Part shown: positions 26 through 40,814 of the stretch, piece by piece | Layout: the number at the start of each line of letters is the position of its first letter | How positions within the stretch are numbered: position 1 is the first letter of the stretch | Assembly: GCA_964601485.1 (NCBI GenBank) | Contig: CAZRNP010000001.1 | Location: forward strand, 1 to 58,707 | Source of the DNA: an uncultured archaeon | Lineage (GTDB): Archaea > Aenigmatarchaeota > Aenigmatarchaeia > CG10238-14 | Length of the DNA stretch: 58,707 bases | Reading direction: 5' to 3' | Program-made: the position numbers and the translations under genes | Notes under the pieces: model-generated | Database searches by the model: none | What the model was told of the DNA's origin: nothing | The model's input: the letters and a program-made list of their open reading frames with translations, nothing else

Positions 26-589
26 ATGTACAGAATATTGACGATCAAAACCAAGATAAAAGTCCCTCCTACACGGTTTGGGATGCCTTTAAAGCAGGCT
101 ATAAAGGAGAGTATAGCAGAAAGATATGAGAATGTGTTAGATAGGAATTTTGGAATGGGGTTATCTGTCGTTAACGTCAGTGAGATAGGCGAAGGCAAGA
201 TAGTGCCTGGTGACCCTTCTATCCATTATTTGGTTACTTTTGACCTGTTGACCTTTAAGCCAGAATTACATGAAATCATCGTAGGTGATGTCATTGACAA
301 CACAGAATTTGGTTCTTTTGTCAGGTTTGGACCGATGGATGGTCTTGTACACGTTTCTCAACTACTGAACGATTACGTAAGCTATGATGATAAGAATGCT
401 GTTTTCATGGGAAAGGAGACAAAAAAGACGTTGAAAGAAGGGGATCCTGTCAGGGTTAGAGTAATATCGATAAGCATGGCTCCTGGAAAAGAGAATAAGA
501 TAGGCTTGACGATGCGACAGCCAAACTTAGGAGCGTTAGCATGGATTGAAGAAGAGAAAAAAAGAACTAGGAAAGAAGGTAAGAAATAG
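26..589 (+). CDS. rpo7: DNA-directed RNA polymerase subunit E' (Rpo7) with C-terminal S1/OB domain
   Basis: ORF 17..589, first ATG at 26. Rpo7-like N-domain followed by an S1 motif (GDVIDNTEFGSFVRFGPMDGLVHVSQL ... GDPVRVRVISI). Confidence 0.85.
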   Translation: MYRILTIKTKIKVPPTRFGMPLKQAIKESIAERYENVLDRNFGMGLSVVNVSEIGEGKIVPGDPSIHYLVTFDLLTFKPELHEIIVGDVIDNTEFGSFVRFGPMDGLVHVSQLLNDYVSYDDKNAVFMGKETKKTLKEGDPVRVRVISISMAPGKENKIGLTMRQPNLGALAWIEEEKKRTRKEGKK

Positions 590-713
590 ATTATCTTTGT
601 AGTATATACATTAGATTGTAAATAATGAAGGTCGGTATGGTACCGATTGACTATTCTCAAAGTCTAAACTACCTTCTTTAATACATTTTAACCTATTAAA
701 GCTTGAGTTCCAA

Positions 714-742
714 TGGAAGTTCGTCTAATAGTAGTTATATTC
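714..742 (+). repeat. Array-proximal junction: homolog of only the right arm (L'-R') of the downstream attC-like sites, ending in core GTTATATTC
   Basis: gaagttcgtctaatagta|GTTATATTC parallels gaacttcgttaaaaaagttcc|GTTAGCC at 4146-4173. GTTATATTC (734-742) is the exact reverse complement of GAATATAAC (1359-1367). I could not find a convincing left arm. Confidence 0.5.
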
Positions 743-1464
743 AATTCAGCAAAACACACTCGGGGATTTTTCACTCGCAGAATTCTCGTCGCTTTGCTCC
801 TCGTGTAGTTATCCGCTTTTAAATCAAACTTAAATCTTTAATTAATATTATATTTTTAGATGATTTAATGAATGGTCATATCTTAATATATTTATTTGAT
901 GTTATAACCAAAGAAGGCGAAAAGAAGCGTATCGAAAATATTGATTTAGATCCTGAAAGACTTGCTTCTCATAGACCCCTAGAACCTGAAGATTTTCCTC
1001 GATTTGGATATCAACAAACAATTGAATCTCAAAATATAAAATTTCGAGAATACTTAAATGAATTGAACAAACACTATGGTAATGGCCCAAGGTATAAATA
1101 TGCTTTAGAATTACTTAATACTGCTACAGCTATAGTTATGACAGCAGCACTACGTGAAACATCAAAAAGTCCAGCGTTTTAGTAATCCATATAGTAACTT
1201 TTCTAAAAACTGGGCTCGTGAAAAATCCCCTCGTTCTTTCCTTCAACTCGTCAAACCGAGTCAAAGTAAAGGTTTTGCTGAACTATTCGCCGATATTATA
1301 TTTTCTTCAAATAGTCGGCTCGTCCTCCTTCGAACAGTGAAAAGAGAACTCAGTCGGAGAATATAACACCTTTTTGACGCTGGAATTCCTGCAGGTTTTC
1401 GGAATTCGGTCTTACGACACATTCTTTTATACTTCGTTAAATAGAACGTCGTCAAAAAAGAACC
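734..1464 (+). mobile_element. Putative gene cassette 1 (731 bp), boundaries +/- a few nt
   Basis: Starts with GTTATATTC and ends with its own attC-like site, whose left core GAATATAAC (1359-1367) is the exact complement. Inner inverted repeat: CTCGGGGATTTTTCACTCGC (759-778) vs GCTCGTGAAAAATCCCCTCG (1214-1233). Confidence 0.6.
868..1182 (+). CDS. Hypothetical protein (104 aa), cassette 1 ORF
   Basis: ATG-initiated ORF downstream of a TATA-like ttttaaat box (about 817-824). I recognise no family. Confidence 0.5.
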   Translation: MNGHILIYLFDVITKEGEKKRIENIDLDPERLASHRPLEPEDFPRFGYQQTIESQNIKFREYLNELNKHYGNGPRYKYALELLNTATAIVMTAALRETSKSPAF

Positions 1465-1471
1465 GTTAGAT
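1361..1471 (+). repeat. attC-like imperfect palindrome 1 (111 bp)
   Basis: ATATAAC-ACCTTTTTGACGC ... CGTCAAAAAAG-AACC-GTTAGAT. The inner boxes are mutually complementary. The central region is homologous to the other three sites (ggtcttacgacacatt...acttcgtta). Confidence 0.65.
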
Positions 1472-1953
1472 GCAATTCCGAGGCTCGCGCAAATAAGAAT
1501 AAATTTTTAAAAATTCGTAGAATATAAAGGTGAAAAAATGGCTTCAGGTCAATGTGGAAATCTTAATGAGTTATTATGGGCGCAATTAAAAACACTATCT
1601 GATACAGGGAATCCAGGAGCAAAATATGCTATGACGCATATGTATCGTGTAGCGTATTTTTATTACGATAATAGGAACTCTAAGTTAAAAAGTGTTGGTT
1701 TAATAAGAGATAAAGATCGAATGTTAGGTGACTGGTCGGATTATATTGAAATTGAGTTCGATTAATAAAAAAATCGGCGCTCGCCACGGAACTCTTCGTT
1801 CTTTCAGAACTCGCTCTCAGTCGTAGTAATGAAATCATATGACTTTGTCTCCTTCGAGGCATCTAACCCCTTTTATACGCTTCAGCCTTCGGCTTCGGTC
1901 TAACGACAAATTAAAATAAACTTCGTTATTATTAATTTCGCATAAAAGGATCC
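1465..1953 (+). mobile_element. Putative gene cassette 2 (489 bp)
   Basis: Left end GTTAGATGCAATTCCGAGGCTCGCGC (1465-1490). Right end GCGCTCGCCACGGAA (1777-1791), a 67-nt insert, then GCATCTAAC (1859-1867), followed by the attC-like site. Confidence 0.65.
1538..1765 (+). CDS. Hypothetical protein (75 aa), cassette 2 ORF
   Basis: ATG preceded by aaaggtga (SD-like) and an atttttaaaaatt TATA-like box. No recognisable family. Confidence 0.5.
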   Translation: MASGQCGNLNELLWAQLKTLSDTGNPGAKYAMTHMYRVAYFYYDNRNSKLKSVGLIRDKDRMLGDWSDYIEIEFD

Positions 1954-1960
1954 GTTGTAC
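1861..1960 (+). repeat. attC-like imperfect palindrome 2 (100 bp)
   Basis: ATCTAAC-CCCTTTTATACGC ... GCATAAAAGG-ATCC-GTTGTAC. It shares a 51-nt stretch with site 3 (1906-1956 vs 2492-2542) with one mismatch. Confidence 0.7.
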
Positions 1961-2539
1961 GCCATATTACTCGATTTTTCGCTCGCCCATCTTCTCGTCG
2001 TTTCACTCCTCGCGTAGTTACCGCGTTCTTAAATAAAGTATTTTAATAGTGAATTTCAAAATTAGATTATGAAGTTGAAAGAATTTTTGAAACCAACTAT
2101 ATGGAAAGTGATAATTTTTATCATCCTTCTAATTTTAACTTCTGTTTTTAATTATGCTACTTACTGCCCTGAATGCACAAGAGCAGCCTATGGTTTTCCA
2201 TTAGCATTGTATGAATTGCCTGGCTGTAAACCTGTTTCTGCAGAAGGATGCCCAGGATATAGAGTAATATATTCTGCCTTGATAGTTGATTTAATATTTT
2301 GGTATTTGGTTTCTTGTCTCATAGTTTGGTTTTACGATAAGCGTAAGAAAAAATCCTAAATTCCAACTCGCGAAAAATCTGCGTTACACCGCTTCATTGC
2401 ATTCGCGCCTCACTTCACTTCGTTTTGTTCGGGGCGTACAACACCTTTTATACGCTTGCGCTCCTCATCCTTGCGGTGCTCGGTGCTTCGCACAAATTAA
2501 AATAAACTTCGTTATTATTAATTTCGTATAAAAGGATCC
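1954..2539 (+). mobile_element. Putative gene cassette 3 (586 bp)
   Basis: Left end GTTGTACGCC (1954-1963) plus CTCGATTTTTCGCTCGCC (1970-1987). Right end ACTCGCGAAAAATC (2366-2379), a 53-nt insert, then GGCGTACAAC (2433-2442). Confidence 0.65.
2069..2359 (+). CDS. Small membrane protein (96 aa), cassette 3 ORF
   Basis: Hydrophobic helices at both ends (WKVIIFIILLILTSVF; LIVDLIFWYLVSCLIVWF) flank a Cys-containing loop. Confidence 0.55.
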   Translation: MKLKEFLKPTIWKVIIFIILLILTSVFNYATYCPECTRAAYGFPLALYELPGCKPVSAEGCPGYRVIYSALIVDLIFWYLVSCLIVWFYDKRKKKS

Positions 2540-2546
2540 GTTAGAT
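2436..2546 (+). repeat. attC-like imperfect palindrome 3 (111 bp)
   Basis: GTACAAC-ACCTTTTATACGC ... CGTATAAAAGG-ATCC-GTTAGAT. The inner boxes form 11 perfect complementary bp. Confidence 0.7.
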
Positions 2547-4166
2547 GCAATTCCGAGGCTCGCGCAATAGGTTTTTTATATTCATAAAGAAAAATAACAA
2601 ATATGAAAGGTCAATCATCTATTGCCATAATAGTTATTCTAATTATCACATCTATTATGGTTGGTGGAACTTATTATGTAACTCAGATGAAGACATCAAC
2701 TACTACAACAACCATAACAACTACAATAATATCAACAATTTCTACCACAAGTAGCAGTACGACAACATCAACAATTTCAACATCTACTACGCTACCACAA
2801 ACTACTACAACAATCGAAATTACGTCTGTTTGTAGTGATGGATTTTGTGAAATTGGAGAAGATCAAATAAACTGTTGCAGGGATTGTGTATGTTCTTATG
2901 GTTCACTATGTGAATATAATATAAAATGTTCTTCTTCCTTAGTTAGGACACTTGCTTCTCTTGATAATCTTTCTTTAGAGGAGAGATTCAAATTATTAAA
3001 TGATATGCATGGATTGCAAAAAATGACATTAAATGATTTTTATTCGTTTCTTGAGTCCAAATTAGAAGACAATAATTATGTATCAGTTGAGTTCGGTGAA
3101 AGTCATAGTTCAGAAAAAGAACAAGAAATAGCAACAAATTTAATTGATTTTATTGCATCAAAACGTTCTATTTATGAATTTGCTATTGAAAGTCACATTG
3201 CTGTGCGTGAAACAGGAGCTAAAGAAACCGTATATACTTATAACATTTCAAATTTTCAATCAACGTTAAATAAATATAACATAAAGATTAGTAATTTAGG
3301 AAATTCAATTTCTAATGATTTATTTTGTAGTGAAATTAAAGGAAAGATACAATCAATGAGAAATAATCTAAATGACGTTTTACTAACATATACAGGACAT
3401 GGACATATCTCGAAAGAAACTTGTTATTATCCAGATATTTGGGATACGTGTTTACCTCCACATATCAAAGAGTGTGTGAGCCAATTAAATAAAAAATCTA
3501 TAGCTATAATATTAGTAGATACGGAACGAATATCTCCAACTATTGATCATAATTTTGTTTTCAAGATGGTAAAAAGTTCCAGTTCTAGTATAGATAATTT
3601 AATTTCAGATTTCATAAACAAATGGAATTCTATAATGAGTAATGAACCCGATGAAACTTATGTAGTAAAATCGAAATACGATGAAGATGTATATTTTGTG
3701 TTAATACCAAATAAAGAAACAAAAGCAAAATTTACAACAGCGTTTAATATAGTCTGGAATAACCAAACACTAAAAGATTATATGATAAATAATGATATAT
3801 TGAAATTTTGTTGTTCTTTTGGTACTAATTGGCAAATTTATGGTTTCGATCCTTCAATTGTTGTAGTTCGAATACATGATCCAAACAACAGTGGAGAAAC
3901 AGTATTAAGTGTTGCCGTTAATATAGATTTAGGAACAATAAAAGAAATTCTTGTACCTAAATTATAAATAACAATCTATAATTCTATAAAAAACCGCGCT
4001 CGCCTCGGAACTCTTCACCTTCGGTTCGCTCTCAGTCGTTGAATTGAAGTCATGTCAATAGCCTCCTTCGAGGCATCTAACACTTTTTTAACGCTTCGCT
4101 GTCGCTCGGTGCTTCGCACAAATTCTTTTTATACTGCGTTAAAAAGAACTTCGTTAAAAAAGTTCC
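2540..4166 (+). mobile_element. Putative gene cassette 4 (1627 bp)
   Basis: The left end, extended 2 nt upstream (2538-2566), is identical over 29 nt to that of cassette 2 (1463-1491). Right end GCGCTCGCCTCGGAA (3996-4010), a 62-nt insert, then GCATCTAAC (4073-4081). Confidence 0.65.
2603..3967 (+). CDS. Membrane-anchored secreted protein (454 aa): TM helix, Thr/Ser-rich stalk, Cys-rich segment, unknown domain; cassette 4 ORF
   Basis: N-terminal helix SSIAIIVILIITSIMVGGTYYV, then a long T/S run, then CSDGFCEIGEDQINCCRDCVC. I do not recognise the rest. Confidence 0.7.
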   Translation: MKGQSSIAIIVILIITSIMVGGTYYVTQMKTSTTTTTITTTIISTISTTSSSTTTSTISTSTTLPQTTTTIEITSVCSDGFCEIGEDQINCCRDCVCSYGSLCEYNIKCSSSLVRTLASLDNLSLEERFKLLNDMHGLQKMTLNDFYSFLESKLEDNNYVSVEFGESHSSEKEQEIATNLIDFIASKRSIYEFAIESHIAVRETGAKETVYTYNISNFQSTLNKYNIKISNLGNSISNDLFCSEIKGKIQSMRNNLNDVLLTYTGHGHISKETCYYPDIWDTCLPPHIKECVSQLNKKSIAIILVDTERISPTIDHNFVFKMVKSSSSSIDNLISDFINKWNSIMSNEPDETYVVKSKYDEDVYFVLIPNKETKAKFTTAFNIVWNNQTLKDYMINNDILKFCCSFGTNWQIYGFDPSIVVVRIHDPNNSGETVLSVAVNIDLGTIKEILVPKL

Positions 4167-4173
4167 GTTAGCC
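4075..4173 (+). repeat. attC-like imperfect palindrome 4 (99 bp)
   Basis: ATCTAAC-ACTTTTTTAACGC ... TCGTTAAAAAAGT-TCC-GTTAGCC. The central ggtgcttcgcacaaatt is shared with site 3. Confidence 0.65.
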
Positions 4174-4760
4174 AAAATTACTGGAGACACAGTCGAAAAT
4201 TTTCACTCGCCACGTAATTATCCAAAATACGTCATTACTAAATAGTTACTACAGAATAGAAAAGTTTAAAAACTTTACTTCATTATTCAATAACAATAAA
4301 ATTTGTGATGTGAATGGCGTACAAAGCAGAACAAGCATATTTATTCGTTACAGAAAATTATCTTAATGAACTTAAACAGTCAATAGATCACCCTTCTCCT
4401 ACTTTAGCGAAAGTATTAGAGAAAGTAGCTGGAAAACCCATATTCAAAGGGTTTGACCCTAAAGTTAAAGCTCAAATTGAAATAATTCCTGGAGTACATT
4501 ATCCAGGATCAGATGCACAGACATTTTGTATAAGAAAATACTTTAAAGGTTTCGGAAAAGAATATTCAGGTAAGAATTGTGTTACATCGGAACTTTTTGA
4601 AGATATAGACTTTTCGACAGCTAGGTCTATAAATATAAAATTATTAAAATTGATGGAAGCTTATTCACAAAATAAAAAACAATAAGTTTCGGCTCGTGAA
4701 AATTTTCTCCTTCTTGATTTCAACTAACTTCGAAAGTCAAAATCAAGGTCTCCAGTAACC
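4167..4760 (+). mobile_element. Putative gene cassette 5 (about 594 bp), last in the array, with no full attC-like site after it
   Basis: Left TTACTGGAGAC (4178-4188) plus GTCGAAAATTTTCACTCGCC (4192-4211). Right GGCTCGTGAAAATTTTC (4691-4707), a 40-nt hairpin insert, then GTCTCCAGTAA (4748-4758). Confidence 0.5.
4314..4685 (+). CDS. Hypothetical protein (123 aa), cassette 5 ORF
   Basis: ATG ORF with no recognisable family. Confidence 0.5.
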   Translation: MAYKAEQAYLFVTENYLNELKQSIDHPSPTLAKVLEKVAGKPIFKGFDPKVKAQIEIIPGVHYPGSDAQTFCIRKYFKGFGKEYSGKNCVTSELFEDIDFSTARSINIKLLKLMEAYSQNKKQ

Positions 4761-4843
4761 TTCGCTCGCATGAACTCGCTCGCCCTTCGGATACATTTGA
4801 TTAAAAAGAAATCATTTTATTCTCAATTTTTCAATAGTAATTC

Positions 4844-5332
4844 ATGAAGAAATTAATCTTATTGACCATTTTTATAACATTCTTAATATCTCTATACACG
4901 ATAAATGCCATTGATTGTACTGGTTCGACTTCATTAGTTTTATCACCAAACCTTGTCGAAGGCGAATCTGAAGTTAAAGCTATTGTAACAGGTTTAACGG
5001 ATACAACATGCTACGGTAAAATTATACAAATAACTCGTGATTCCTGTTCTGGGCCAAAGATTTGCAATTGTGAATCAAAAGGCATGGGTTGTTCTTGTTC
5101 ATTTAAGGCAACATTGCCTTCTATAGGAATCAGGTACTTTCAGAATGAATACAGGTACTATGCTTGCGTGGATAAGAACGGGAACGGGGATTTCTTAGAC
5201 TCTGGAGAACAGGCTTTTACAACGTTAACAGTCCGAAGAAAGGTTCCTTTAATACCATTAGGTGCTATTGAAATGATTAGTCAAACACTTAAAAGCTTTG
5301 CCGAGGCATTTGCTCATCTTTTTAAACTTTAG
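4844..5332 (+). CDS. Secreted Cys-rich hypothetical protein (162 aa)
   Basis: Signal-peptide-like N-terminus (KKLILLTIFITFLISLYTINA) and many Cys. It lies directly upstream of spt4. Confidence 0.6.
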   Translation: MKKLILLTIFITFLISLYTINAIDCTGSTSLVLSPNLVEGESEVKAIVTGLTDTTCYGKIIQITRDSCSGPKICNCESKGMGCSCSFKATLPSIGIRYFQNEYRYYACVDKNGNGDFLDSGEQAFTTLTVRRKVPLIPLGAIEMISQTLKSFAEAFAHLFKL

Positions 5333-5359
5333 TTTGATTAATAATAAGGAAGTGGTATA

Positions 5360-5551
5360 ATGGTTAAGAGACAATATGTTTGCAGGAATTGTAGAAGGTT
5401 CACGATGGAGAAGGAATGCGTTGTTTGTAAGTCAAAAGACCTTTCAGCTAGTTGGAAGGGGTTAGTTATAATAATCGACCCAAATGAATGCGAGATAGCA
5501 AAGAACCTGAGTATAACAACCCCTGGAAAATATGCTTTGTTCGTGGGATGA
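5360..5551 (+). CDS. spt4: Transcription elongation factor Spt4 (RpoE'')
   Basis: Zinc ribbon CRNC...CVVC followed by SWKGLVIIIDPNECEIAKNLSITTPGKYAL, the typical archaeal Spt4 pattern. Confidence 0.85.
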   Translation: MVKRQYVCRNCRRFTMEKECVVCKSKDLSASWKGLVIIIDPNECEIAKNLSITTPGKYALFVG

Positions 5552-8050: not shown

Positions 8051-9226
8051 TTAACCACATTTCTTCAACGTTCTCATTATTCTTTTATGTGTCTCTTCAA
8101 TCGTCAGAGCAGCAGTATTCAACTTTATACAAGGAACCATCGAGAACAAGAGTGAAAAATAATGTTCTTGCAGTTTTTCATTCAGATCTATTTGATAAGG
8201 ATAAGGATTGTACCAAGCTTCAGACCCTAACGTTCCCCACATCTCCTTTGGCCCTGCACCAGGCCTTATCATCAATTCACCCTTCCTCAACACTTCAATA
8301 GCTTCGTCTGATTTTAAAATCATCTCTGCAGGGTTTCCAGGCACTCTCTCCAATAGGATAATCAGATTTAATCTTGTTTTATCTATGACTTTTTCTGGTC
8401 CTAACAGTTTCTCACGTGGAACCATTACTCTGGAGTTACCAAAGGCATAATAACACCATTCCTTCCCTTCATCAAACACACATTTTCTCTCCCCTTTCTT
8501 ACATTCTTCTAAACAAACAGGATTCTCACAATCTTTTTTACTGATAACAATGTTCTCACACTTACATTTGTCAAAGATAGGACGTAGCCATGGAAAATCT
8601 TTCTCGTTCTCTGTACGCATGTACAAGCTCTTCTCTGGTTGTGTGACAATCAAGGCTGGTTTAGGGTTGCCTTCTTGGAAATTCACGTAGACCCAATCAT
8701 CACCGAGTATCCTGCCATCTGGACGTAAGAATAACTTAAAAGATTGTGTTGTCTTTCCAGTGCCAGTAGGAGCGATTAACACTACACCCTTACCGTTTAT
8801 ATCAGTACAAGCACCGTGGATGGAATGTATACCAAACTCTTCTGATAGTATGGCTGATGATGGTCCTAAAGTTCCCCTACTCTTACATTGTCCGTAATAA
8901 TCGTAGTTAATGAAGATGGATGTACGCCTCTCTGGGCAATAATAGATTGTTGGGTCCGTCCCATCAACACCATCAAGTGAATACAAGAATACACGTGAAG
9001 GTACGTCATCTGAAAGTAACCAGTTCTCCCTCCAGAATTCAAACTGATGGATGTTGTTCGTGATGAGCTCAACACCTATGCCGTTTAAGTTGGCTTTTGC
9101 TCTGTAGGTTTCTGGTTTTAGGAATTCAGGGATGATACCACTCAAGAGTTTATCTAGTTGACTCTTGTTGATAATCTTGTTAACTTTCACTCGGGATTTT
9201 TCACGTGTTGTGTAGTTGTCTAACAA
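8051..9226 (-). CDS. HprK/PEPCK-fold P-loop kinase-like protein with a Cys-rich insert
   Basis: GKGVVLIAPTGTGKTTQSFKLFLRPDGRILGDDWVYV resembles the HPr-kinase/PEPCK nucleotide-binding core. Cys cluster: CKCENIVISKKDCENPVCLEECKKGERKC. Confidence 0.45.
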   Translation of the reverse strand: MLDNYTTREKSRVKVNKIINKSQLDKLLSGIIPEFLKPETYRAKANLNGIGVELITNNIHQFEFWRENWLLSDDVPSRVFLYSLDGVDGTDPTIYYCPERRTSIFINYDYYGQCKSRGTLGPSSAILSEEFGIHSIHGACTDINGKGVVLIAPTGTGKTTQSFKLFLRPDGRILGDDWVYVNFQEGNPKPALIVTQPEKSLYMRTENEKDFPWLRPIFDKCKCENIVISKKDCENPVCLEECKKGERKCVFDEGKEWCYYAFGNSRVMVPREKLLGPEKVIDKTRLNLIILLERVPGNPAEMILKSDEAIEVLRKGELMIRPGAGPKEMWGTLGSEAWYNPYPYQIDLNEKLQEHYFSLLFSMVPCIKLNTAALTIEETHKRIMRTLKKCG

Positions 9227-10109: not shown

Positions 10110-11261
10110 ATGGATACTATAATGCAAAGTGCATTGAAGAGAACTTTTGGAAATGAGACTGAATGTTTTGATAGGTTTAAGTTACAAACCAATTCTGGTG
10201 TAACGAAAACAAATATCGATTACTTCAAACAGGCTGAGGAAGAGTTTGGTTTCTCGGTTAAGAAGGCAAGGATCGTAGTGTTTGGATGTGGTGGAGCTGG
10301 ACAAAACACAGTAACCAGATTAAATGAAATGGGAATTCAAGGCGCTAACACTATCTCGATAAATACTGACGCCAAGGCCTTGACAGTAGGTAAAGCAGAT
10401 AAGAAGATCCTTCTCGGTAAGGATGTTACTAGAGGACTAGGTGCTGGTGGTTATCCAGAAATTGGTAAAAAGGCTGCTGAAGAAGAGAGGAATGAAATTA
10501 AAGAAGCGTTAGAAGGAGCTGACTTAGTCTTCGTTTGCGCAGGTGAAGGTGGAGGTACAGGAACTGGATCTGCTCCTGTCGTAGCAGAAATTGCAAAATC
10601 GATGAACGCCATCGTTATAGGAGTTGTAACTATGCCCTTCAAGATTGAAGGTGCGAGGATTGGAAAAGCAGAAGACGGTCTAGCAAGATTAAGAGGAGTA
10701 ACAGACACAGTCATCGTGATAGAGAACGATAGGTTGTTGAAGTATGCTGGTAACTTACCGATTCAACAGGCATTCGCGTTCGCAGATGAACTGATCGCAT
10801 CGATGGTAAAGGGAATAACCGAAACGATTACATTGCCTTCATTGGTTAACGTAGACTATGCAGACGTAAGAGCGATAATGCATGCTGGTGGTGTAGCCGC
10901 TCTAGGTGTAGGTGAGAGCAACAGTTCTGACAGAGCTATGGATGCTGTTACAAAAGCTTTGACTAATCCATTGTTGGATGTTGACTATACTGGAGCAAAG
11001 GGTGCATTGATACACATAACTGGTGGCAACGACCTAAGGCTGGACGAGGTAAATGCAATCGGACAAACAGTGTCTCAATATCTAGACCCATCTGCCCAAG
11101 TAATATGGGGAGCAAGAATCTTACCAGAGTTCAACGGAAAGGTACAAGTTATATCGATCATAACCGGAGTACAATCGCCTTACATACTAGGACCTGTCTC
11201 TTGTGAAAAGCCAGTCTTGAGAGAGATGAGTCAAGCACTCGGTATCGACATAATAAGATAA
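10110..11261 (+). CDS. ftsZ: Cell division protein FtsZ
   Basis: GCGGAGQN, the tubulin signature GGGTGTGSAPVVAEIAK, and GLGAGGYPEIG. SD-like aggagg upstream. Confidence 0.95.
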   Translation: MDTIMQSALKRTFGNETECFDRFKLQTNSGVTKTNIDYFKQAEEEFGFSVKKARIVVFGCGGAGQNTVTRLNEMGIQGANTISINTDAKALTVGKADKKILLGKDVTRGLGAGGYPEIGKKAAEEERNEIKEALEGADLVFVCAGEGGGTGTGSAPVVAEIAKSMNAIVIGVVTMPFKIEGARIGKAEDGLARLRGVTDTVIVIENDRLLKYAGNLPIQQAFAFADELIASMVKGITETITLPSLVNVDYADVRAIMHAGGVAALGVGESNSSDRAMDAVTKALTNPLLDVDYTGAKGALIHITGGNDLRLDEVNAIGQTVSQYLDPSAQVIWGARILPEFNGKVQVISIITGVQSPYILGPVSCEKPVLREMSQALGIDIIR

Positions 11262-11289
11262 TGCTTAAAAGGGATGAACACCCCCTCCC

Positions 11290-11304
11290 TTTTTCTTTTT
11301 TTTT
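11290..11304 (+). terminator. Oligo-T tract after ftsZ (archaeal-type terminator candidate)
   Basis: tttttcttttttttt lies about 30 nt after the ftsZ stop. Confidence 0.4.
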
Positions 11305-11337
11305 GGGAAAATCAAAGAGGTGAAAATTAAAGTGATA

Positions 11338-11523
11338 ATGGAAGATGTAATATTTAGCTTGATAAAGAAGGAGAAAGAAGTAAAAGGAATGGTCTACGAC
11401 CCAAAGATAATGAAGATGGCAACTTTACTGAACATACACCCTGATGCTTACGAGAAAGTTAAAGAAAGGCTTATTGAACAAGGAAAGATAGGAAAGAGCG
11501 GTCTCAAACTGCTTCTTCTCTAA
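11338..11523 (+). CDS. Small hypothetical protein (61 aa from the ATG; GTG at 11320/11332 also possible)
   Basis: ORF 11320..11523 with aagaggtga upstream. Possibly a winged-helix-like fold, but that is a guess. Confidence 0.4.
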   Translation: MEDVIFSLIKKEKEVKGMVYDPKIMKMATLLNIHPDAYEKVKERLIEQGKIGKSGLKLLLL

Positions 11524-11675
11524 TCCTTTTTCTTTTTTTATTTTATATAATAAATCTTAGAATTCTTGTCATAAGTTTTGGATAGGTTAGCATCCAATCT
11601 TTATTTTTTCATAACAACTTTACTCCATCAAAATCTGTTTATATGCTATTTGAGAATTATCAGTTGGTGTTCAAG

Positions 11676-15310: not shown

Positions 15311-15398
15311 ATTAGAAAGTTAAGTTACAATTAATAAATATTTTTTTTCCCTCTTTTTCTCTTATTATAAAAGTTAAAGGAAAGAACAAGGGAATTTT

Positions 15399-16034
15399 TC
15401 ACGAATCGGATTTTTTATGTTTTTCTAAAAGTTCTTTTATTTGTTGTATGTTTTCTTGTTTTCCTTTATCTCTTATTGATCTGGCTGCATTTGTGAAATA
15501 CGAATGGGCTTCTAGAAAACTAAGTTGTTCCTTATACCATTCTTTAACTGTTTTTGGCATACCATATTCTCTTAATTCTTTTCTTAAGTTTTCACTCTTA
15601 ACAAAGAAATCTTCTCTACCGAGGGAATCCAAATCTGAATCACACATTATTTTTTGTAAAATATCTCTCGTATCAGGTTTTTGTATAAGTTTACCATCTA
15701 CTGATTGTAATGGTGTTGCCAGAATTATTTTACTAATTCTGTAAATTTGGCCTTTAGAATATCCAAAACGTGGTAAAGTTTCAGATGCAATTCTAACGCC
15801 TATAGGTTCATTTTTTGCATATTGCTCTAGATAACCAGTATCATGATATACTGTGGCAGTTCGTAATAGTAACAAATCTTCACCCTTAACTCTTTCCATT
15901 TTTGCTAATCTTTCTGCAGCTGGTAATACGTCATCTCTTGTATGATGAATATCATGATAGAATAGATTTGATGGTAATTTTTGCAGTAATTCAAATGCAT
16001 ATTCTCTTGCAGCTTCAAAATTCGGTTTTTGCAT
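15399..16034 (-). CDS. HD-domain phosphohydrolase
   Basis: YHDIHHT...YHDTGY...DSDLDSLG. The gene is flanked by cassette-type ends (see findings). Confidence 0.75.
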   Translation of the reverse strand: MQKPNFEAAREYAFELLQKLPSNLFYHDIHHTRDDVLPAAERLAKMERVKGEDLLLLRTATVYHDTGYLEQYAKNEPIGVRIASETLPRFGYSKGQIYRISKIILATPLQSVDGKLIQKPDTRDILQKIMCDSDLDSLGREDFFVKSENLRKELREYGMPKTVKEWYKEQLSFLEAHSYFTNAARSIRDKGKQENIQQIKELLEKHKKSDS

Positions 16035-16104
16035 ATTTTTATGAGTAATTTACCTATTTTTAAACATTTCTATACTTTTGTCACTAAGTGATAATTACAC
16101 TACT

Positions 16105-16163
16105 GGATAACTACGTGGCGAGTGAAAATTTTCGACTGTATCTCCAGTAATTTTGGTTAACGG
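16105..16163 (-). repeat. Inverted copy (56/59 identical) of the cassette-5 left end at 4165-4223
   Basis: The reverse complement is ccgttaaccaaaattactggagatacagtcgaaaattttcactcgccacgtagttatcc. The copy at 4165 is ccgttagccaaaattactggagacacagtcgaaaattttcactcgccacgtaattatcc. Confidence 0.9.
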
Positions 16164-16224
16164 CTATTTTTAATGTTATAAAAACAATTCTTATTAAAAA
16201 TTAAAGTTTCTTAATAATATCTAA

Positions 16225-16300
16225 GGGGTAGTGGTCTAGCCTGGTCTATGACACCAGCTTGGGGTGTTGGTAATCCCGTGTTCAAATCACGGCTACCCCA
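16225..16300 (+). tRNA. tRNA-Pro (anticodon GGG)
   Basis: Hand-folded cloverleaf: acceptor GGGGTAG/CTACCCC, anticodon arm CCAGC-TTGGGGT-GTTGG, T arm CCGTG-TTCAAAT-CACGG, G37, A73; 76 nt. Confidence 0.9.
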
Positions 16301-34637: not shown

Positions 34638-37600
34638 TTATTCTTGGATAGGTTCTTTGAGATATTTTTCCTTTAATTTTTCCCATTCATCTTCTAAACT
34701 GCGTTCCTTGCGTTTTTTTATAATCCAGAATGTACCTATTATGGTCAATATAATTATGATGATCGTTAAAATTATATAATGTGAAAAGGTGAGTGTTATA
34801 GCCAGTGGTACTGATACAGACTCTAAAGATTCAGCAAGTATTACCGGAGTAGAAGTGGTGTTTATAATGTCTTCATTTATTTTTCCTCTGACTGAATAAG
34901 TAATGATCTTCTCTTCTTCTGGGTTTAGACTTTTAAAAACAAACAGATACTCAGGATCTTTATTTAAAATAAACACTTCAGCTTCAGTATAAACTTCTAT
35001 AGAATCAGAACTGTTTGCAAAATTCTTAGGAATTGTGTCGTAGACTATCAAATTCTTTATTCTCTTATTACCATTGTAGTTTATCTTTAGACTCAGAACA
35101 GATTCATTCATATTTTGGTCTATTATCAATGTTCTGTTGATTTTGAATTGATGCTGAATTTTAAGCGTATTTTGTGAAAATAATTCTTTTATTGCTTCAG
35201 ATATTTCTTTACCGATTGCTAGATGTAAGCCTTGTTTCAACTCTTTATTCTTCTCAATCAAGTCTTTTATTTCACTCACAGTTCTAATAACAATCTCTTT
35301 AATAATTGAATGGATTATTCTACCCCTTTTATTCGGTATCGTAGTAGTCGTTGATGATGTTAACGATGTCGTGGTTGTAGTTTTTTTTCCACTCCCGCCA
35401 CCGCCTCCACCGCCGCCGTTACCATTTCCTCCTCCAGGAATAGTCGTAGTAGTAGTTTGACTGGTCATGATTAAATTATAAATATCAGAAACATTCCAAT
35501 TGTTTGAAGTATCGTTAGCAAAGAATTTCCATTGTAATAATGTATTTGATGTTGAATTCAAGACAGTGACATTCCAAGATGTGTTTGATTGACCAGAAAA
35601 ACTAATGAATGAAGAATTTACCCATGTTCCTGTGTTGTTCGTGCTGAAATAATAACCAGATAATTCTGAATTATCCTGCCAATCTAATGTAAAATTGACG
35701 GCAGTTCCAGCAGCAGTTCCGTTAGTTGCATTGTTAGAATAATTTGGTGGTATAGTGTCGATAGTGAAATAAACCATGTTTGATGTAGAACCATTCATGT
35801 TACCAGAAGTATCGTTGCAGTAGAATCTGACATTATTTCCACCTTCTGAAGGAATGGATAAATTCAAGTTATAATTACCAGTCGAGTTTGTCAGCGTCTG
35901 GTTTGCAGTCCCATTCAAACTGACTAGACACTTTGATCCAGTCTCATCCAATGTAATGTTTGCCCAAACCCATTTTTGAGAATATGTGGTATTTAAAGGA
36001 CTCTGGATCGTTACGATGGGTTGTATAGTATCTACAGTAAACGAAACGTTGTTCAGTGTAGAACCATTCATGTTACCAGAAGTATCGTTGCAGTAGAATC
36101 TGACATTATGGATACCTTGAGACAACCCAGTGAATTGATACCACCATTTTCCTGTAGTGTTTGTCATGGTATAATTGACACTACTTGAATCATTTTTTAC
36201 ACCACACCAAGAACCAGCTTCGTTCAGAGTAACATTGACCCAAACTGAAGAGGTAGAATATGTTTGATTCAATGGGCTTTGTATCGTGATGATTGGTGGT
36301 GTTCCGTCAGAAGTAATTAAGGTAAATGGATTATCACATGAAGTCCCATTCCAGTTGTTTGAAGTATCGTTAGCATAAACACACCATCTTATAGTGCAAC
36401 CTACTGTTGAATTGATTGTCTTTGTCACGTTAGACCATGTTCCACTAAAAGCAATAGCAGAATCGTTTGCTAAAGTTCCTGTACAGTTATCGAAGCTGAA
36501 AATATAACTCGACAAAGCAACATTATCAGTCCAGTTCAGATTATGACGAATAGGAGTTCCTGCTAAGGCTGAGTTTGTTGAGTTTAAAGAGTAAGTCGGT
36601 GGCGTATTATCTACAACTGTAATATAATAAGTTGCACCTGTAGCATTAGAAGTATAGTTTGTATTATCTGTTATGTTTCCACTATAATTATGTAGACCGA
36701 GAGATAAAGTAGTTGTTCTCGGGTTTGCAACATCAACATTATCCTCTTTAAGATAAGCTGTTCCTGATTGAGAATATATTGCTGTTACATTAGCTGTGGT
36801 TGAACCGTAAGTTGTAGTTATGTTTTGGTTTGCATAAGTTCCTGTTGAATTTATGAAATAAATGTTAATCGGATTTGTCTGGTTCTGATTAACAAAAACA
36901 TAATAATTTGTACTGTTTGAACTGTAGTTTTGGTTTCCTGTACTGTTCAATGTTATTTTGTAAACACCAACACCACGAACTATATTGGTGTTATTTTGAG
37001 TCGTTGTTGAATCATTCAAAAATATACCACAAGTTCCACCACCTGAACAAATACCAGTAAAATTAGTCGATTGTGGATAAATTACACTCATGTTTTGATT
37101 TAGATATTCTGTAGTGTTCCTGAAATACAAGTTCATCACATTTGATGCATTGTTTACAATCAAATACAACGTTGAATTTGATGCTGACGTATAGTTCGTA
37201 TTACCAGAAGTGTTATAAATAACTGGATAAATTCCTCCTCCTTCATTCGCTGTTATTACTGCAGGATTTCCAGATGCAGTCCTTCCAGAAACATACAGAT
37301 TAAACGTTGGAGATGTCAAAGTTGTTGTTGAGTTACCACGAACTTCTATTGAAAAAGGATAAGTCCCAGTGTAATTACTCGAAACATTATTTATATACGT
37401 TATCACGTTTGGAGTAACCTGATTTACAGTTCTATATTGATTCAACAAATAAGTCGAAGTATAGTTCTGTGTTGCAGTATAATTACAGGTATAATTGTAG
37501 ACTCCTGCTCCTAACGTAATAGATGTCTCGTTTATAGTTGCTGTAGAACCAGTAGCAACCTGAGTTCCATTTCTTAATAGAGTTATCACTCCAGATGAAT

Positions 37601-40600
37601 CACCTATCACTTTTTCACAGCCTGTTTGAGTAGACGTTCCATAATTTACTGATGTAAGTGATGCTATAGATAAAGACGGTGAAGAAGCATTTATCGTTAA
37701 ATTAAACTGCTTAGTCCCAGAAGTATAGTTCTCATTCCCTGCAGTATAGTAGGTATAATTGTAAAAACCTGCACCTAATTGAACCACTTCCGATTGCGGA
37801 TTTCCTGTTCCTATTGATGTTCCATTTTTATAGAGAGTAAACGTTATTGTTTGTCCATTGAAACCTGTGTTCCATCCTGTAGCATTAGACACAGACAGAA
37901 AGTTATACACCTTGTTACTTTCTGTTCCATTAATTGTTAAATTCATGAAATTGACAGTCGAGGTATTTATGTTCACGATATAAGTCCAAGTATCAGTTAC
38001 ATTCCAATTATTTGATGTATCATTTCCAAAACTTCTCCATAAATAAGTTCCAACTTTTGGTATTTTCATATCCAAATTATAATAACATTCATTACCTGAT
38101 TTAGTCATAGATATATTAGACATAGTTGCAGTTCCAGTAGTGAAATTCTGCTCTATAAGACATGTATTAAAACCAGTCTCATCTGTCCAAGTAACATTAA
38201 ATTGACTTGTTCCATTTCCATACATATTCTGATTTACTGGACTTGTTTTATTGTTAGACCAAGTTGGTGATGTATTGTCTGGTGTTGTGGTATAAGAAAA
38301 AGGATTGGCACATGAAGTCCCATTCCAGTTGTTTGATGTATCATTGACATAAAAGTACCATGCGACTACTGTTCCTATAGTTGAATTCAAAACAGTGACA
38401 TTCCATGCAGTGTTGGATGTTCCAGAAAAACTAACGAGAGAGGCATTAGTCCAAATCCCTGAATTGTTTGTAGAAAAGATGTAACCAGATAGTCCAACGT
38501 TATCTTGCCAGTCTAGAGTGAAGTTGCATGGCTGCCCTGCAATAGTTGTATTAGTTTGATTGTTGGAATAAGTTGGTGCTTTAGTATCATTGTATATGAA
38601 AATTTCATGTTCTGAACCCAATGACAAGGATAAGTTTATCTCTCCGTTTGATTGGGAAACATTGCAATTAGCGTTATCGCACAATTGATCATCAAAATAA
38701 ATATTGTATATTAATGCTGAGTCAGGCATCTGAACTGTTATGTTAGTATTGCCAACGCCTTCCAGAGTTATGTTAGCCTGATTCGTATCAGAAGGAGGAG
38801 AGGTTGCTGATAATACATTTATCTCTTTATTGGTAATCGATTTTATTTGTGGCGTATCGGTATAATTGTAAGTTATATTAACGTATGATGGATTTGTTGC
38901 ATCTGTCGTCCAGTAAGGCATGCCACCTATTAATTTTACAGTAAACCAATACCAAGATTTTACGTAATCCATAGTCCAATTTACAGTAAAATTTTTGGTA
39001 GTATTGGTATATACACTACTGGAAGTGATGTTTTTAAAGTCATCATAATTTGTATTATCATAGGTAGCATACCTTTGAATAGCCAAAATGGGTGTGCCGC
39101 CTGCTTTATACCTTATAAAAATGGTTATATTTCTAATAACCCCAAATGGTATTGACGGAATTTCATCTACAGCGTGTTGTACCCAATAGGTACAGAAGGC
39201 GCTCTCCGAAGTAGTAGGTAAGGTAAGCAATAATGAGGATGAGTCAGTACCTGATGGTTGAAAATGCGTTGGACCGATATATCTATAATAATATTGAGTT
39301 GTTTTATTCGTCACGTTAACGAGATAAATGTATTTTGTCTTTATTTCATTGTTTTCATCAAAAGTTATATGGGGTATCAACGAATACATGCCCGATCTAG
39401 ATACAGTAAAATTTCCTGTTATAAGATTTCCTGTTTTTGAAGCAGTGACAGGCTCACTGGGTCTTGTTGTTATATCATAAGTAAAATTTGAACATGCTGT
39501 GTTATTAGGATAGAAAACAGAGATATTAAAGGTTACTAAATCGTTTATCGTTTTTTCCCTATCTCCTGAAATTACCAACATATTAGTTTTAACGTTATAT
39601 AGAAATCTGTTGTATGAATAATTGTTTGTTAAGCTGTCAGACACGTCTAGAATATTGTTACTTATAATATTGTTAAAAATAATGTTTTGAGCGGAAGATT
39701 CTAATTTTAAACCAAAGTAACTAGTATTTATTGTATTGTTAAAAAATGCGTTATTTTTAGCACCTTCTGAGAAATAAACAGATTGAAAATTGTTTTGAAA
39801 ATTGTTGTAGGAAATTGTGTTATTTGGTGTATTAACATACAAGCCACAATAATAATAATTAATATTGAAGGTAGTTGAATCACGAATTTCGTTATTTTTT
39901 ATCGTATTACCAAAATATGCATCATAAAATGTTCCAGCAAGGAATATGCCATAGTTGTTTGAAGTGAATGTGTTGTTTGAGATTGTATTGTTGTCGCTAT
40001 GCATATACGGTAGTATGCCATAGTTATTTGAAGTGAATGTGTTGTTTGAGATTGTATTGTTGTCGCTATATTCAATATAATTAGCAGCATATTCGTTTGA
40101 AGTGAATGTGTTGTTTGAGATTGTATTGTTGTCGCTATTATAGAGGTAAACACCGCTATAATAATTCTCTATTGTACATCCTTTTAATGTAGATGTACTA
40201 AACCCGTTAACCGTAATACCTTTTCCATAATCAGTACCATTCAAGATAGTATTGTTACATTCTAATACGACATTTGGTGCGTTAATTATTATTACTCCAT
40301 TATTATCAGTATCATTTATGTTATAAGTGCCAGGACAAAGAGTTACATCATAATTTATATAAAGATTGTTTATTGGGATTTCACATGTCGTAACAAAACT
40401 TTGAATATCAGTAGAATTCCAGTTGTTAGACGTATCATTGACTGTGACATTCCATCTTATCGTACATCCTACTGTAGAGTTAATGACTTTAGTTACATTA
40501 CTCCATTGAGGGGAAGTTTGACCTGAAAAACTTTGCCATGGATCTTCTTGCCATGTTCCGGTACAGTTGTCAAACTTAAAAATATATCCAGATAGACCAG

Positions 40601-40775: not shown

Positions 40776-40814
40776 GATGTTTATAATTTCTGTTTTTAGA
40801 AAATGGTCTTAAAT

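Follow-up and report, generated by a model that had tools for sequence, protein, structure and literature searches.

The DNA analysed here, referred to as the window, comprises 58,707 nt of an uncultured Aenigmatarchaeota archaeon (contig CAZRNP010000001.1, assembly GCA_964601485.1), a low-G+C archaeal chromosome segment with ~35% G+C. Between two genes taken to be rpoE' and spt4, five short open reading frames (ORFs) lie in the same orientation with repeated non-coding blocks in between. On sequence evidence we propose, with moderate confidence, that these blocks and ORFs form an integron-type array of five gene cassettes (734-4759, with four junctions), in which long complementary arms at the two ends of each cassette would serve as a scaffold extending the attC site of the excised cassette, folded as bottom-strand single-stranded DNA (ssDNA). 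The window was compared with related loci and contigs, labelled L001 to L042. Exact and profile searches identified relatives in a Candidatus Aenigmatarchaeota metagenome-assembled genome (MAG) from Lac Pavin sediment (GCA_026397455.1), and further relatives come from freshwater-sediment metagenomes.

Each cassette is built in the same order: a left end made of an R' core and one or two arms, a TATA-like promoter and the ORF, 3' non-coding DNA of 70-180 nt that holds the complementary arms and an insert, and an attC-like site. The A/T-rich TATA-like motif, e.g. AATAAGGTTTAAATCTTTAA, is conserved after the left arm in each cassette, so that every cassette seems to have its own promoter. The interiors of the four attC-like junctions lie at 1368-1464, 1868-1953, 2443-2539 and 4082-4166 (forward strand, as for all array coordinates below), as located with an nhmmer junction profile and, for the first, also from the covariation of its L box. 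They measure 86-97 nt, or 105-116 nt from R'' to R', and sit between GCATCTAAC-type and GTTAGATGC-type ends. The layout of R'' (...AAC), a spacer of 1-2 nt, L'' (CTTTTnnnCG), three small hairpins, L' (CGnnnAAAAG), a spacer of 4-5 nt and R' (GTT...) makes a site of 100-120 nt. The asymmetric spacer between R and L boxes differs from the classical extrahelical bases. The junction profile picked out 49 distinct junctions at 30-odd loci of the related set, and each stands in an array of one to six; matching of the junction pattern against viral contigs gave nothing. When 29 circularised cores, each consisting of a cassette's own right end, junction and left end, were aligned and analysed with RNAalifold, an R helix of nine pairs (six with compensatory changes) and an L helix of ten pairs (five with compensatory changes) were obtained. 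AAC and GTT are invariant in all 29 cores, and 95.8% of the cells are paired, compared to 80.5% in shuffles and 30-45% with a slid partner. Some R'' variants (GTACAAC, ACATAAC) deviate from the strict RYYY of RYYYAAC. Judged from its sequence, the junction has the anatomy of an integron attC site: the ORFs stand in tandem and are mostly co-oriented, each has an imperfect palindromic site within the ~55-140 nt of integron sites, and R''/R' cores with AAC/GTT are accompanied by covarying L''/L' boxes.

The initial annotation had claimed that complementarity between the two ends of a cassette extends well beyond the ~7-nt core. Such complementarity is present in all five cassettes, and the coordinates given for it were all recovered exactly. 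In cassette 1, the left end (734-778) consists of R' GTTATATTC (734-742), arm 1 AATTCAGCAAAAC (743-755) and arm 2 with its clamp CTCGGGGATTTTTCACTCGC (759-778). These elements pair with arm 2' GCTCGTGAAAAATCCCCTCG (1214-1233) and, beyond a branch, arm 1' GTTTTGCTGAACT (1272-1284) in the inner part of the right end (1214-1284), and with R'' GAATATAAC (1359-1367), which follows an insert after arm 1'. The backbone of this cassette is also found in L007 and L002. The left end of cassette 2 (1465-1490), with R' GTTAGATGC and the arm AATTCCGAGGCTCGCGC, pairs with a right end (1777-1867) made of clamp and arm GCGCTCGCCACGGAACT (1777-1793), a 67-nt insert and R'' GCATCTAAC (1859-1867); the same left end is found unchanged in cassette 4, L007, L032 and L003, with a different ORF in each. 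Cassette 3 has a left end (1954-1986) with R' GTTGTACGCC (1954-1963) and the arm CTCGATTTTTCGCTCGC (1970-1986), complementary to the arm CTCGCGAAAAATC (2367-2379) and, after a 53-nt insert, R'' GGCGTACAAC (2433-2442) of the right end (2367-2442). In cassette 4, R' GTTAGATGC is followed by an arm that continues into the TATA-like box (AATTCCGAGGCTCGCGCAATAGGTTTTTTATA; left end 2540-2580), and the right end (3985-4081) holds TATAAAAAACCGCGCTCGCCTCGGAACT (3985-4012), a 62-nt insert and again R'' GCATCTAAC (4073-4081). The pairing extends into the box itself, with TATAAAAAACC-GCGC... against ...GCGC-AATA-GGTTTTTTATA. Cassette 5 resembles cassette 1 in being tripartite, with R box, arm 1, and arm 2 carrying a clamp. 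Its left end (4167-4211) comprises R' GTTAGCC (4167-4173), arm 1 TTACTGGAGAC (4178-4188) and arm 2 with clamp GTCGAAAATTTTCACTCGCC (4192-4211), and its right end (4691-4786) comprises arm 2' GGCTCGTGAAAATTTTC (4691-4707), a branch hairpin, arm 1' GTCTCCAGTAA (4748-4758) and a truncated tail. Compared to the complete copies of this backbone in L033 and L036, which run on to GGTTCGGCTAAC plus a junction, the cassette in the window is cut off after ~4786 and lacks R'' GGCTAAC and the junction.

As the initial annotation had noted, the insert can fold on itself. In cassette 4, two partners are available to the right arm GCCTCGGAA: the left arm and, nearby, TTCGAGGC immediately ahead of R''. The two folds of the cassette 2/4 backbone, which involve 4002-4010 and 4066-4073 in the window, exclude each other and could represent a switch between the integrated and the excised state. 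It should be mentioned that a second recombination site at GCTCGC, direct copies of which flank the ORF module, was considered and rejected, as the motif can be explained as a CGAG block in the G+C clamp (GCG-CGAG-CC versus GG-CGAG-CGC on the bottom strand).

To evaluate the complementarity, the 9-nt core was removed and the next ~50 nt of each left end were matched by duplex energy against the cassette's own 3' non-coding part, with 300 shuffles. The resulting z values for cassettes 1 to 5 on the top strand are -7.5, -3.9, -3.4, -9.8 and -4.8, with at most 4 of the 300 shuffles reaching the same energy. Taken overall, z against shuffles spans -2.8 to -9.8. The comparison was extended to 31 distinct complete cassettes from the window and related contigs, whose ends sort into about a dozen backbone families. 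The arms are unrelated between families and complementary within a cassette. One family has GTTAGATGC-AATTCCGAG-GCTCGCGC on the left and GCGCTCGC-CTCGGAA...GCATCTAAC on the right; a second has GTTGTACGCC-ATTTGAAGT-GCTCGC and GCTCGC-ACTTCAAA...GGCGTACAAC; a third has GTTAGATCC-CATTGACCTCGGG-GCGCC and GGCGCC-CCTCGGTCAA...GAATCTAAC; and a fourth has GTTATATTC-AATTCAAGGCGCC and GGCGCCTTGAA. The mean arm duplex energy is -18.4 kcal/mol for cognate ends versus -10.6 kcal/mol for ends of different backbone families. These energies demonstrate covariation at the family level, which rules out the coincidental sharing of one dispersed repeat that the initial annotation had left open. L005, L008 and L036 supply additional cassettes in which the family-specific pairing of arms is found. 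A single backbone, composed of 26-45 nt on the left and 100-200 nt on the right, surrounds unrelated ORFs; that of family A is seen in window cassettes 2 and 4 and in L007, L032 and L003. Its conservation stops on the left just past the A/T-rich TATA-like motif and starts on the right at the G+C clamp after the stop codon.

Some related cassettes depart from this plan, among them one with weak arms (L018:200). The cassette at 10074-10498 of L017 (oriented) is a hybrid, with the left arm ATTTGAAGTGCTCGC and a right arm, GCTCGCATTTTTCAA, of another family, and with an R'' that fits the left end, which suggests an origin by exchange inside or beside the clamp. At L002:2685 (oriented), the left end reads GTT|GACCTCGGGGCGCC instead of GTTAGATCCCATTGACCTCGGGGCGCC and is 10 nt shorter; it looks like the product of a crossover at a second TT, 10 nt further in. 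In the first cassette of L034 (~11003-11620 in reverse-complement coordinates), the ORF is inverted and the left clamp is broken (GAGGCTC|ACTAAC), with the right end intact, so that the ORF module was replaced and the backbone was not.

The folding of in silico circularised cassettes as ssDNA had been suggested at the outset. For this purpose, 200 nt from the right of each cassette, its junction and 60 nt from its left were joined as in the excised circle and folded with DNA parameters. The non-coding parts fold into one long branched hairpin, and the bottom strand is more stable in 29 of the 30 folds, by 5 kcal/mol on average. A second asymmetry resides in the stems. The CTCG motif had been described as kept at both ends of the cassette, and CTCG opposite CTCG on the top strand is indeed the predominant mismatch among well-paired flanks. 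On the bottom strand, the same positions place 5'-CGAG-3' over 3'-GAGC-5', with two sheared G.A pairs between C:G pairs. This CGAG block is an established stable DNA motif (PMC10085684). The cassette ends contain CTCG 117 times and CGAG 23 times on the top strand. A third asymmetry is found in the small hairpins of the 49 junctions: the bottom strand has 105 copies of CGNAG, which is a GNA triloop with a closing C-G pair, and the top strand has none; the canonical mini-hairpins GCGNAGC or GCGNNAGC number 42 on the bottom strand and are likewise absent from the top. The oligonucleotide d(GCGAAGC) melts at 76.5 C with three pairs only and is nuclease-resistant, and a review has suggested that binding of single-strand-binding protein to the mini-hairpin structure is unlikely (PMC13037366). 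From the fold stability together with the strand-biased motifs, we infer that the structure under selection is most likely bottom-strand ssDNA, as it is for bacterial attC. The functional site of the circularised cassette would thus be a branched palindrome much larger than a bacterial attC, one of the two options offered by the initial annotation, to which the folding, the family-specific covariation of the arms and the bottom-strand signature all lend support.

The R box can be assigned to a single cassette. The two ends of the same cassette agree in 8-10 of the 10 outer positions in 20 of 22 cassettes, with the left end defined only by the preceding junction, and complementarity between the R'' and the R' that share a junction is complete in only 7 of 49 cases. 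There is no preference among neighbours either, the 7 matches of R'' with the R' of the next cassette comparing with ~9 by our own chance estimate from class frequencies. Cassette 2 appears to have moved as a unit. Its interior (1500-1770) is 100% identical by BLAST in L001/L004, and the whole cassette is the same when read by eye; the L001 copy lies behind a DNA polymerase B (polB) gene with a different cassette on either side. Junction 2 differs at several positions between the window and the L001 copy. In BLAST searches of the window cassettes against all related loci collected, cassette 2 alone recurs. The junction interior is associated with the class of the upstream R'' (p = 0.0015) and not with that of the downstream R' (p = 0.8). 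The recurrence of cassette 2 and this upstream association suggest that the mobile unit is an ORF with its downstream site, bounded at GTT, as in integrons.

The first cassette is preceded by an attI-like region (598-733), of which ~130 nt are conserved in alignments with related loci, ending in GAAGTTCGTCTAATAGTA (716-733) right before the first GTT. This region is conserved in L002, L007, L032, L033, L034 and L036, with a different first cassette in each. The gene upstream of it is rpoE' in the window, ribosomal protein S7 in L002 (~1410-1546) and DNA polymerase B in L001 (~8120-8170), and the region stands beside a recombinase gene in L007, L033, L034, L036 and L042 (~195-243). Its occurrence behind different genes indicates several arrays and entry sites in one genome. 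The search for co-occurring recombinases or transposases proposed in the initial annotation led to a tyrosine recombinase. A divergent gene for such an enzyme, of 271-288 aa (276 aa in L036), lies directly beside the attI-like region in L007, L033, L034 and L036-38, and variant sites lie beside a gene of the same type in L003, L039/40, L041 and L042. In L007, L033, L034 and L036, the sequence aligned with 598-733 is found between the recombinase gene and the first cassette. The integron platform, an integrase gene next to attI and transcribed away from the array, is therefore seen in the relatives and not in the window, where no recombinase was detected by Pfam on 26 ORFs, by a box II motif screen of ORFs of at least 120 aa, or by tblastn with two relatives.

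The linked recombinase was compared with both candidate families. It passes the cut-off of the archaeal Xer family NF040815 (recomb_XerA_Arch, NCBIfam; 233.5 bits against 220) and fails that of the integron integrase model TIGR02249 (208.7 bits against 265), to which it matches in two stretches that skip model positions 179-235. Alignment with VchIntIA (2a3v) shows 13 residues in place of the 56 of IntI 182-237 that hold the IntI-specific helix, and the alignment with P. abyssi XerA (4a8e) is unbroken. The additional domain specific to IntI (the I2 helix in the catalytic domain) is thus absent, and by these comparisons the enzyme is XerA-like and not a canonical IntI.

Based on these observations, we propose the following mechanism. 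A tyrosine recombinase, for which the XerA-like enzyme is the candidate, would cut out a cassette by recombining two adjacent sites at their GTT, after which the left end would directly follow the cassette's own attC. The whole non-coding part may then fold as bottom-strand ssDNA into a single long branched hairpin. Its tip would be the L box with the three mini-hairpins, followed by a perfect R box of 9-10 bp. Below the R box would come the arms particular to each cassette, from which the insert branches off sideways, and the G+C clamp by the ORF would close the structure. As a scaffold, the arms would lengthen the excised cassette's recombination site and lock it. The CGAG blocks of the arms and the C-GNA-G mini-hairpins, which form on the bottom strand only, could impose the choice of strand, and the arms probably protect the folded state of the site from single-strand-binding proteins and nucleases. 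Within the array, R'' meets a foreign R' and would often pair with it at AAC/GTT and one or two further positions only; in the circle it would meet its own partner, and the helix would run on through the arms to the clamp. Since the R'' pairing is foreign in the array and cognate in the circle, the excision product would be better paired than the substrates. The form competent for insertion may be a rigid hairpin marked for one strand. Bacterial IntI reads two or three extrahelical bases of the folded attC through its IntI-specific domain. A XerA-like enzyme without the IntI helix may need a duplex-like, self-stabilised substrate as compensation. A precedent for such chemistry is provided by the CTX phage, whose genome integrates through Xer as folded ssDNA.

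Several observations weigh against this proposal. First, the arms are mismatched in the L017:10074 hybrid and weak at L018:200, indicating that long arms are not strictly required. Second, the computed energy of the arms alone is almost equal on the two strands, so that the strand preference rests on the motif counts and the published stabilities. Third, the association between junction and cassette is significant but modest (0.37 versus 0.41), and backbones and junction types occur in partly mixed combinations, a pattern not predicted by a strict G|TT crossover; because CCGTT is conserved at every boundary, G|TT should be regarded as no more than the presumed crossover point. Fourth, the window has no recombinase gene, the attI-like region being preceded by rpoE', and its array may be inert. 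Fifth, the nearest outgroup of the recombinase is the Xer of bacteria of the candidate phyla radiation (CPR), ~50% identical and located in housekeeping neighbourhoods, and the recombinase itself keeps a conserved chromosomal position. It could be the host dimer-resolution enzyme, next to the array by history. No arrays were found beside the ~50%-identical CPR homologues.

The same arms could also be relics. According to this explanation, ORFs were placed in a palindromic 'empty cassette', the backbones are young copies of it, and the arms are a by-product of cassette genesis with no present function. It is favoured by the identical backbone around unrelated ORFs, in five contexts for family A, by conservation that reaches only to about the promoter on the left side and to the G+C clamp on the right side, and by hybrid and truncated backbones that exist and persist. 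On the other hand, about a dozen families differ in their arms and yet all stay paired, the recurrent CTCG/CTCG mismatch is not expected from simple copying of a palindrome, and no empty cassette (an ORF-less backbone) was found when one was looked for. Selection is suggested by the repeated appearance of CGAG blocks and by the number of independent arm pairs, and we regard the arms as unlikely to be functionless. The two-sided backbone is nevertheless a real clue that genes were placed into a pre-existing palindromic frame.

A role at the RNA level appears improbable. Read-through or antisense transcripts might pair the cassette ends for processing, stability or termination, or the right part might be a terminator and the left an operator; the co-oriented arrays make read-through possible, T-rich stretches follow the ORFs, and an RNA cUUCGg loop on the top (sense) strand would fit 17 of the junction loops. 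It would fit only those 17 of 105, however, whereas on the antisense strand all 105 fit C-GNA-G of the DNA type, and RNA does not favour triloops (PMC3201870). The stem mismatches would be U.C/C.U in sense RNA. The left repeat lies upstream of its own cassette's TATA-like box, as the initial annotation had pointed out in favour of a DNA-level role, and an Rfam scan of 500-5500 with E up to 1 matched no family.

Similarly improbable is the use of the arms as duplex binding sites for a protein (the recombinase, an accessory factor or a repressor) that loops the ends of the integrated cassette, with no DNA folding involved. The clamp motif (GCTCGC or GGCGCC) does recur in several families, without a change of orientation between the two ends, and the arms flank the promoter. 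The arms vary widely between families with pairing kept, as expected of base pairing rather than of a shared site for a protein, and a strand-specific motif bias would be meaningless for duplex DNA.

The other option of the initial annotation, passenger-carrying transposable elements bounded by terminal inverted repeats (TIRs) that insert into a palindromic junction, is very improbable and we do not retain it. In its favour, every unit starts with GTT, ends with AAC and has TIRs, and junction types are partly shuffled relative to backbones. Against it, each cassette has a single junction, invariably on its downstream side, this junction correlates with no cassette but the upstream one, and the array does not begin with half a junction. 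Units were seen only in arrays or at attI-like sites, so that a unit is bordered by L' of the preceding junction (or by the attI-like site) and by L'' of the following one, with no duplicated target. In ~200 kb of flanks there was neither a target-site duplication nor a transposase; the precomputed Pfam hits of the genes around the arrays include none, and a motif screen gave only the linked tyrosine recombinase. Miniature inverted-repeat transposable elements (MITEs) and other TIR-bounded non-autonomous transposons share the short units, the TIRs and the conserved ends around variable content; unlike them, the cassettes show no dispersed insertion in the loci compared and occur only in arrays beside a tyrosine recombinase, with one attC-like junction each.

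Comparison of the array with known systems places it nearest to bacterial integrons such as those with the Vibrio cholerae repeats (VCRs). Both have tandem co-oriented small ORFs, an imperfect palindrome R''-L''-variable-L'-R' of ~100-120 nt with AAC/GTT, a boundary at GTT that assigns the end of R' to the following cassette, cassettes in varying orders and places, and an attI beside a divergent tyrosine recombinase gene. In both, the sites are very similar within a lineage despite unrelated ORFs, and the bottom strand is apparently the one that folds. The differences are in the complementarity, which here reaches 15-45 nt past R' and up to ~150 nt past R'', is cassette-specific and contains a branch insert; in the source of asymmetry, which here would be CGAG blocks, GNA mini-hairpins and a 3-4 nt bulge in place of extrahelical bases read by IntI; and in the promoter that each cassette seems to have. 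To our knowledge, classical integron cassettes have no such long arms. Classical cassettes are promoterless, being expressed from a common Pc promoter, and have a short 5' untranslated region and little room for a left arm (in part after PMC4670013).

Archaeal integrons have been reported before. According to Ghaly et al. 2022 (PMC9668308), attC arrays known as clusters of attC sites lacking an integrase (CALINs) occur in archaeal MAGs including Aenigmatarchaeota, most contigs being without an integrase. The six archaeal IntIs of that work have the IntI-specific additional domain, and the Aenigmatarchaeota MAGs listed in it come from marine and vent sediments, belong to order QMZP01 and have 0 IntI. 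The present arrays agree with these in being attC arrays in Aenigmatarchaeota and differ in that the recombinase linked to them is without the IntI-specific domain. The searched parts of PMC9668308 do not describe extended arms, strand motifs or an array-linked Xer-type recombinase, and our literature search found no description of cassette-specific arms, strand motifs or a Xer-type recombinase at arrays.

A Xer-type tyrosine recombinase without the IntI domain that acts on an ssDNA hairpin of a circular element is also known from the CTX phage of Vibrio cholerae and other integrative mobile elements exploiting Xer (IMEX). These elements, which are phages or islands rather than arrays of single-gene cassettes, integrate at the chromosomal dif site; the material studied, in which no dif search was made, yielded no dif-like site. 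With Xer/dif systems, the arrays share a XerA-type recombinase above the NF040815 cut-off in a conserved chromosomal neighbourhood; arrays beside the gene are not a feature of Xer/dif, which has a single 28-bp dif site as its substrate. The claim of the initial annotation that the recombination system is distinct from canonical integrons thus holds in part. The layout of recombinase, attI, array and GTT boundary is that of an integron, and CALINs in Aenigmatarchaeota had already been reported (PMC9668308). What stands as distinct is the lack of the IntI-specific domain, the apparent own promoters and the cassette-specific arms. We describe the system as integron-like in mechanism and layout and not as a proven member of the IntI integrons, because the defining IntI feature was looked for and is absent.

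Within the window, the array is a cluster of attC sites without integrase, situated behind a second copy of the attI-like region. The window is syntenic with L034 and L036 around 12.5-25 kb, and at the position of their recombinase and array it has a degenerate lone cassette, a tRNA-Pro gene (16225-16300) and an unrelated gene. The lone cassette (15340-16165, minus strand) belongs to the backbone family of cassette 5. The left end corresponds to 16117-16161 in reverse complement, the ORF (15399-16034) gives a weak HD-domain hit, and there is no R'' or junction. It was recognised only by reading the sequence; pattern searches of the window returned no further copy of the cassette 2/4 left-end motif, the junction pattern or the attI core. 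Upstream of the array, the ORF at 17-589 is taken to be the RNA polymerase subunit rpoE' by reading, with no family search behind the name. The genes from 5360 on are likewise taken to be spt4 and ribosomal proteins S24e and S27ae. Immediately before spt4, a 162-aa ORF (4844-5332) encodes a protein with a signal peptide, many cysteines and no Pfam hit. Two very large adjoining ORFs of 2045 and 1517 aa occupy 34638-45368 on the minus strand.

Some further observations concern the related arrays and their genes. Similar small membrane proteins starting with M(N/K)(W/L)KEFLKPT are encoded in several cassettes (window 2069-2359, L012, L023 and L036) and constitute a recurrent gene family of the cassette pool. 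One chromosomal gene, which the Pfam list gives as a signal peptide peptidase, borders the ends of two arrays, in L012 (~1924-1975) and L039 (~3120-3228 in reverse-complement coordinates). Their last junctions are cut at different points; distal array ends erode by deletion. The 3.1-kb contig L003 (CAYVCK010000076.1) is recorded as part of an uncultured Gammaproteobacteria MAG; as its cassettes are of the same type and its recombinase is related, it is probably misbinned.

Integrons are the main gene-capture device of bacteria, and the creation of their cassettes as well as the descent of the integrase from Xer-like ancestors are still debated. The arrays described here retain the logic of cassette, attC and attI with two components changed, namely an enzyme without a domain thought to be essential for the recognition of folded attC and a site with long strand-biased stems. 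We tentatively suggest, as a possibility still short of an even chance, that they represent a separate lineage of integrons, in which a Xer-type recombinase never had, or has lost, the IntI domain, and the site is, in place of an attC of ~60-120 nt, a cassette-specific ssDNA scaffold of at least 200 nt with CGAG blocks and GNA mini-hairpins. Such a lineage could be an evolutionary intermediate from Xer/dif to integrons or an independent invention. If genes were indeed placed into a pre-existing palindromic 'empty cassette', this would bear on the long-open question of cassette origin. If the proposed mechanism is correct, integron-type recombination can do without the IntI domain, sheared G.A motifs and mini-hairpins would provide a natural case of programmed ssDNA folding in vivo, and the backbone conserved on either side of the ORF would constrain models of cassette genesis. 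The system offers concrete substrates, with or without arms and on the top or the bottom strand, together with a small recombinase.

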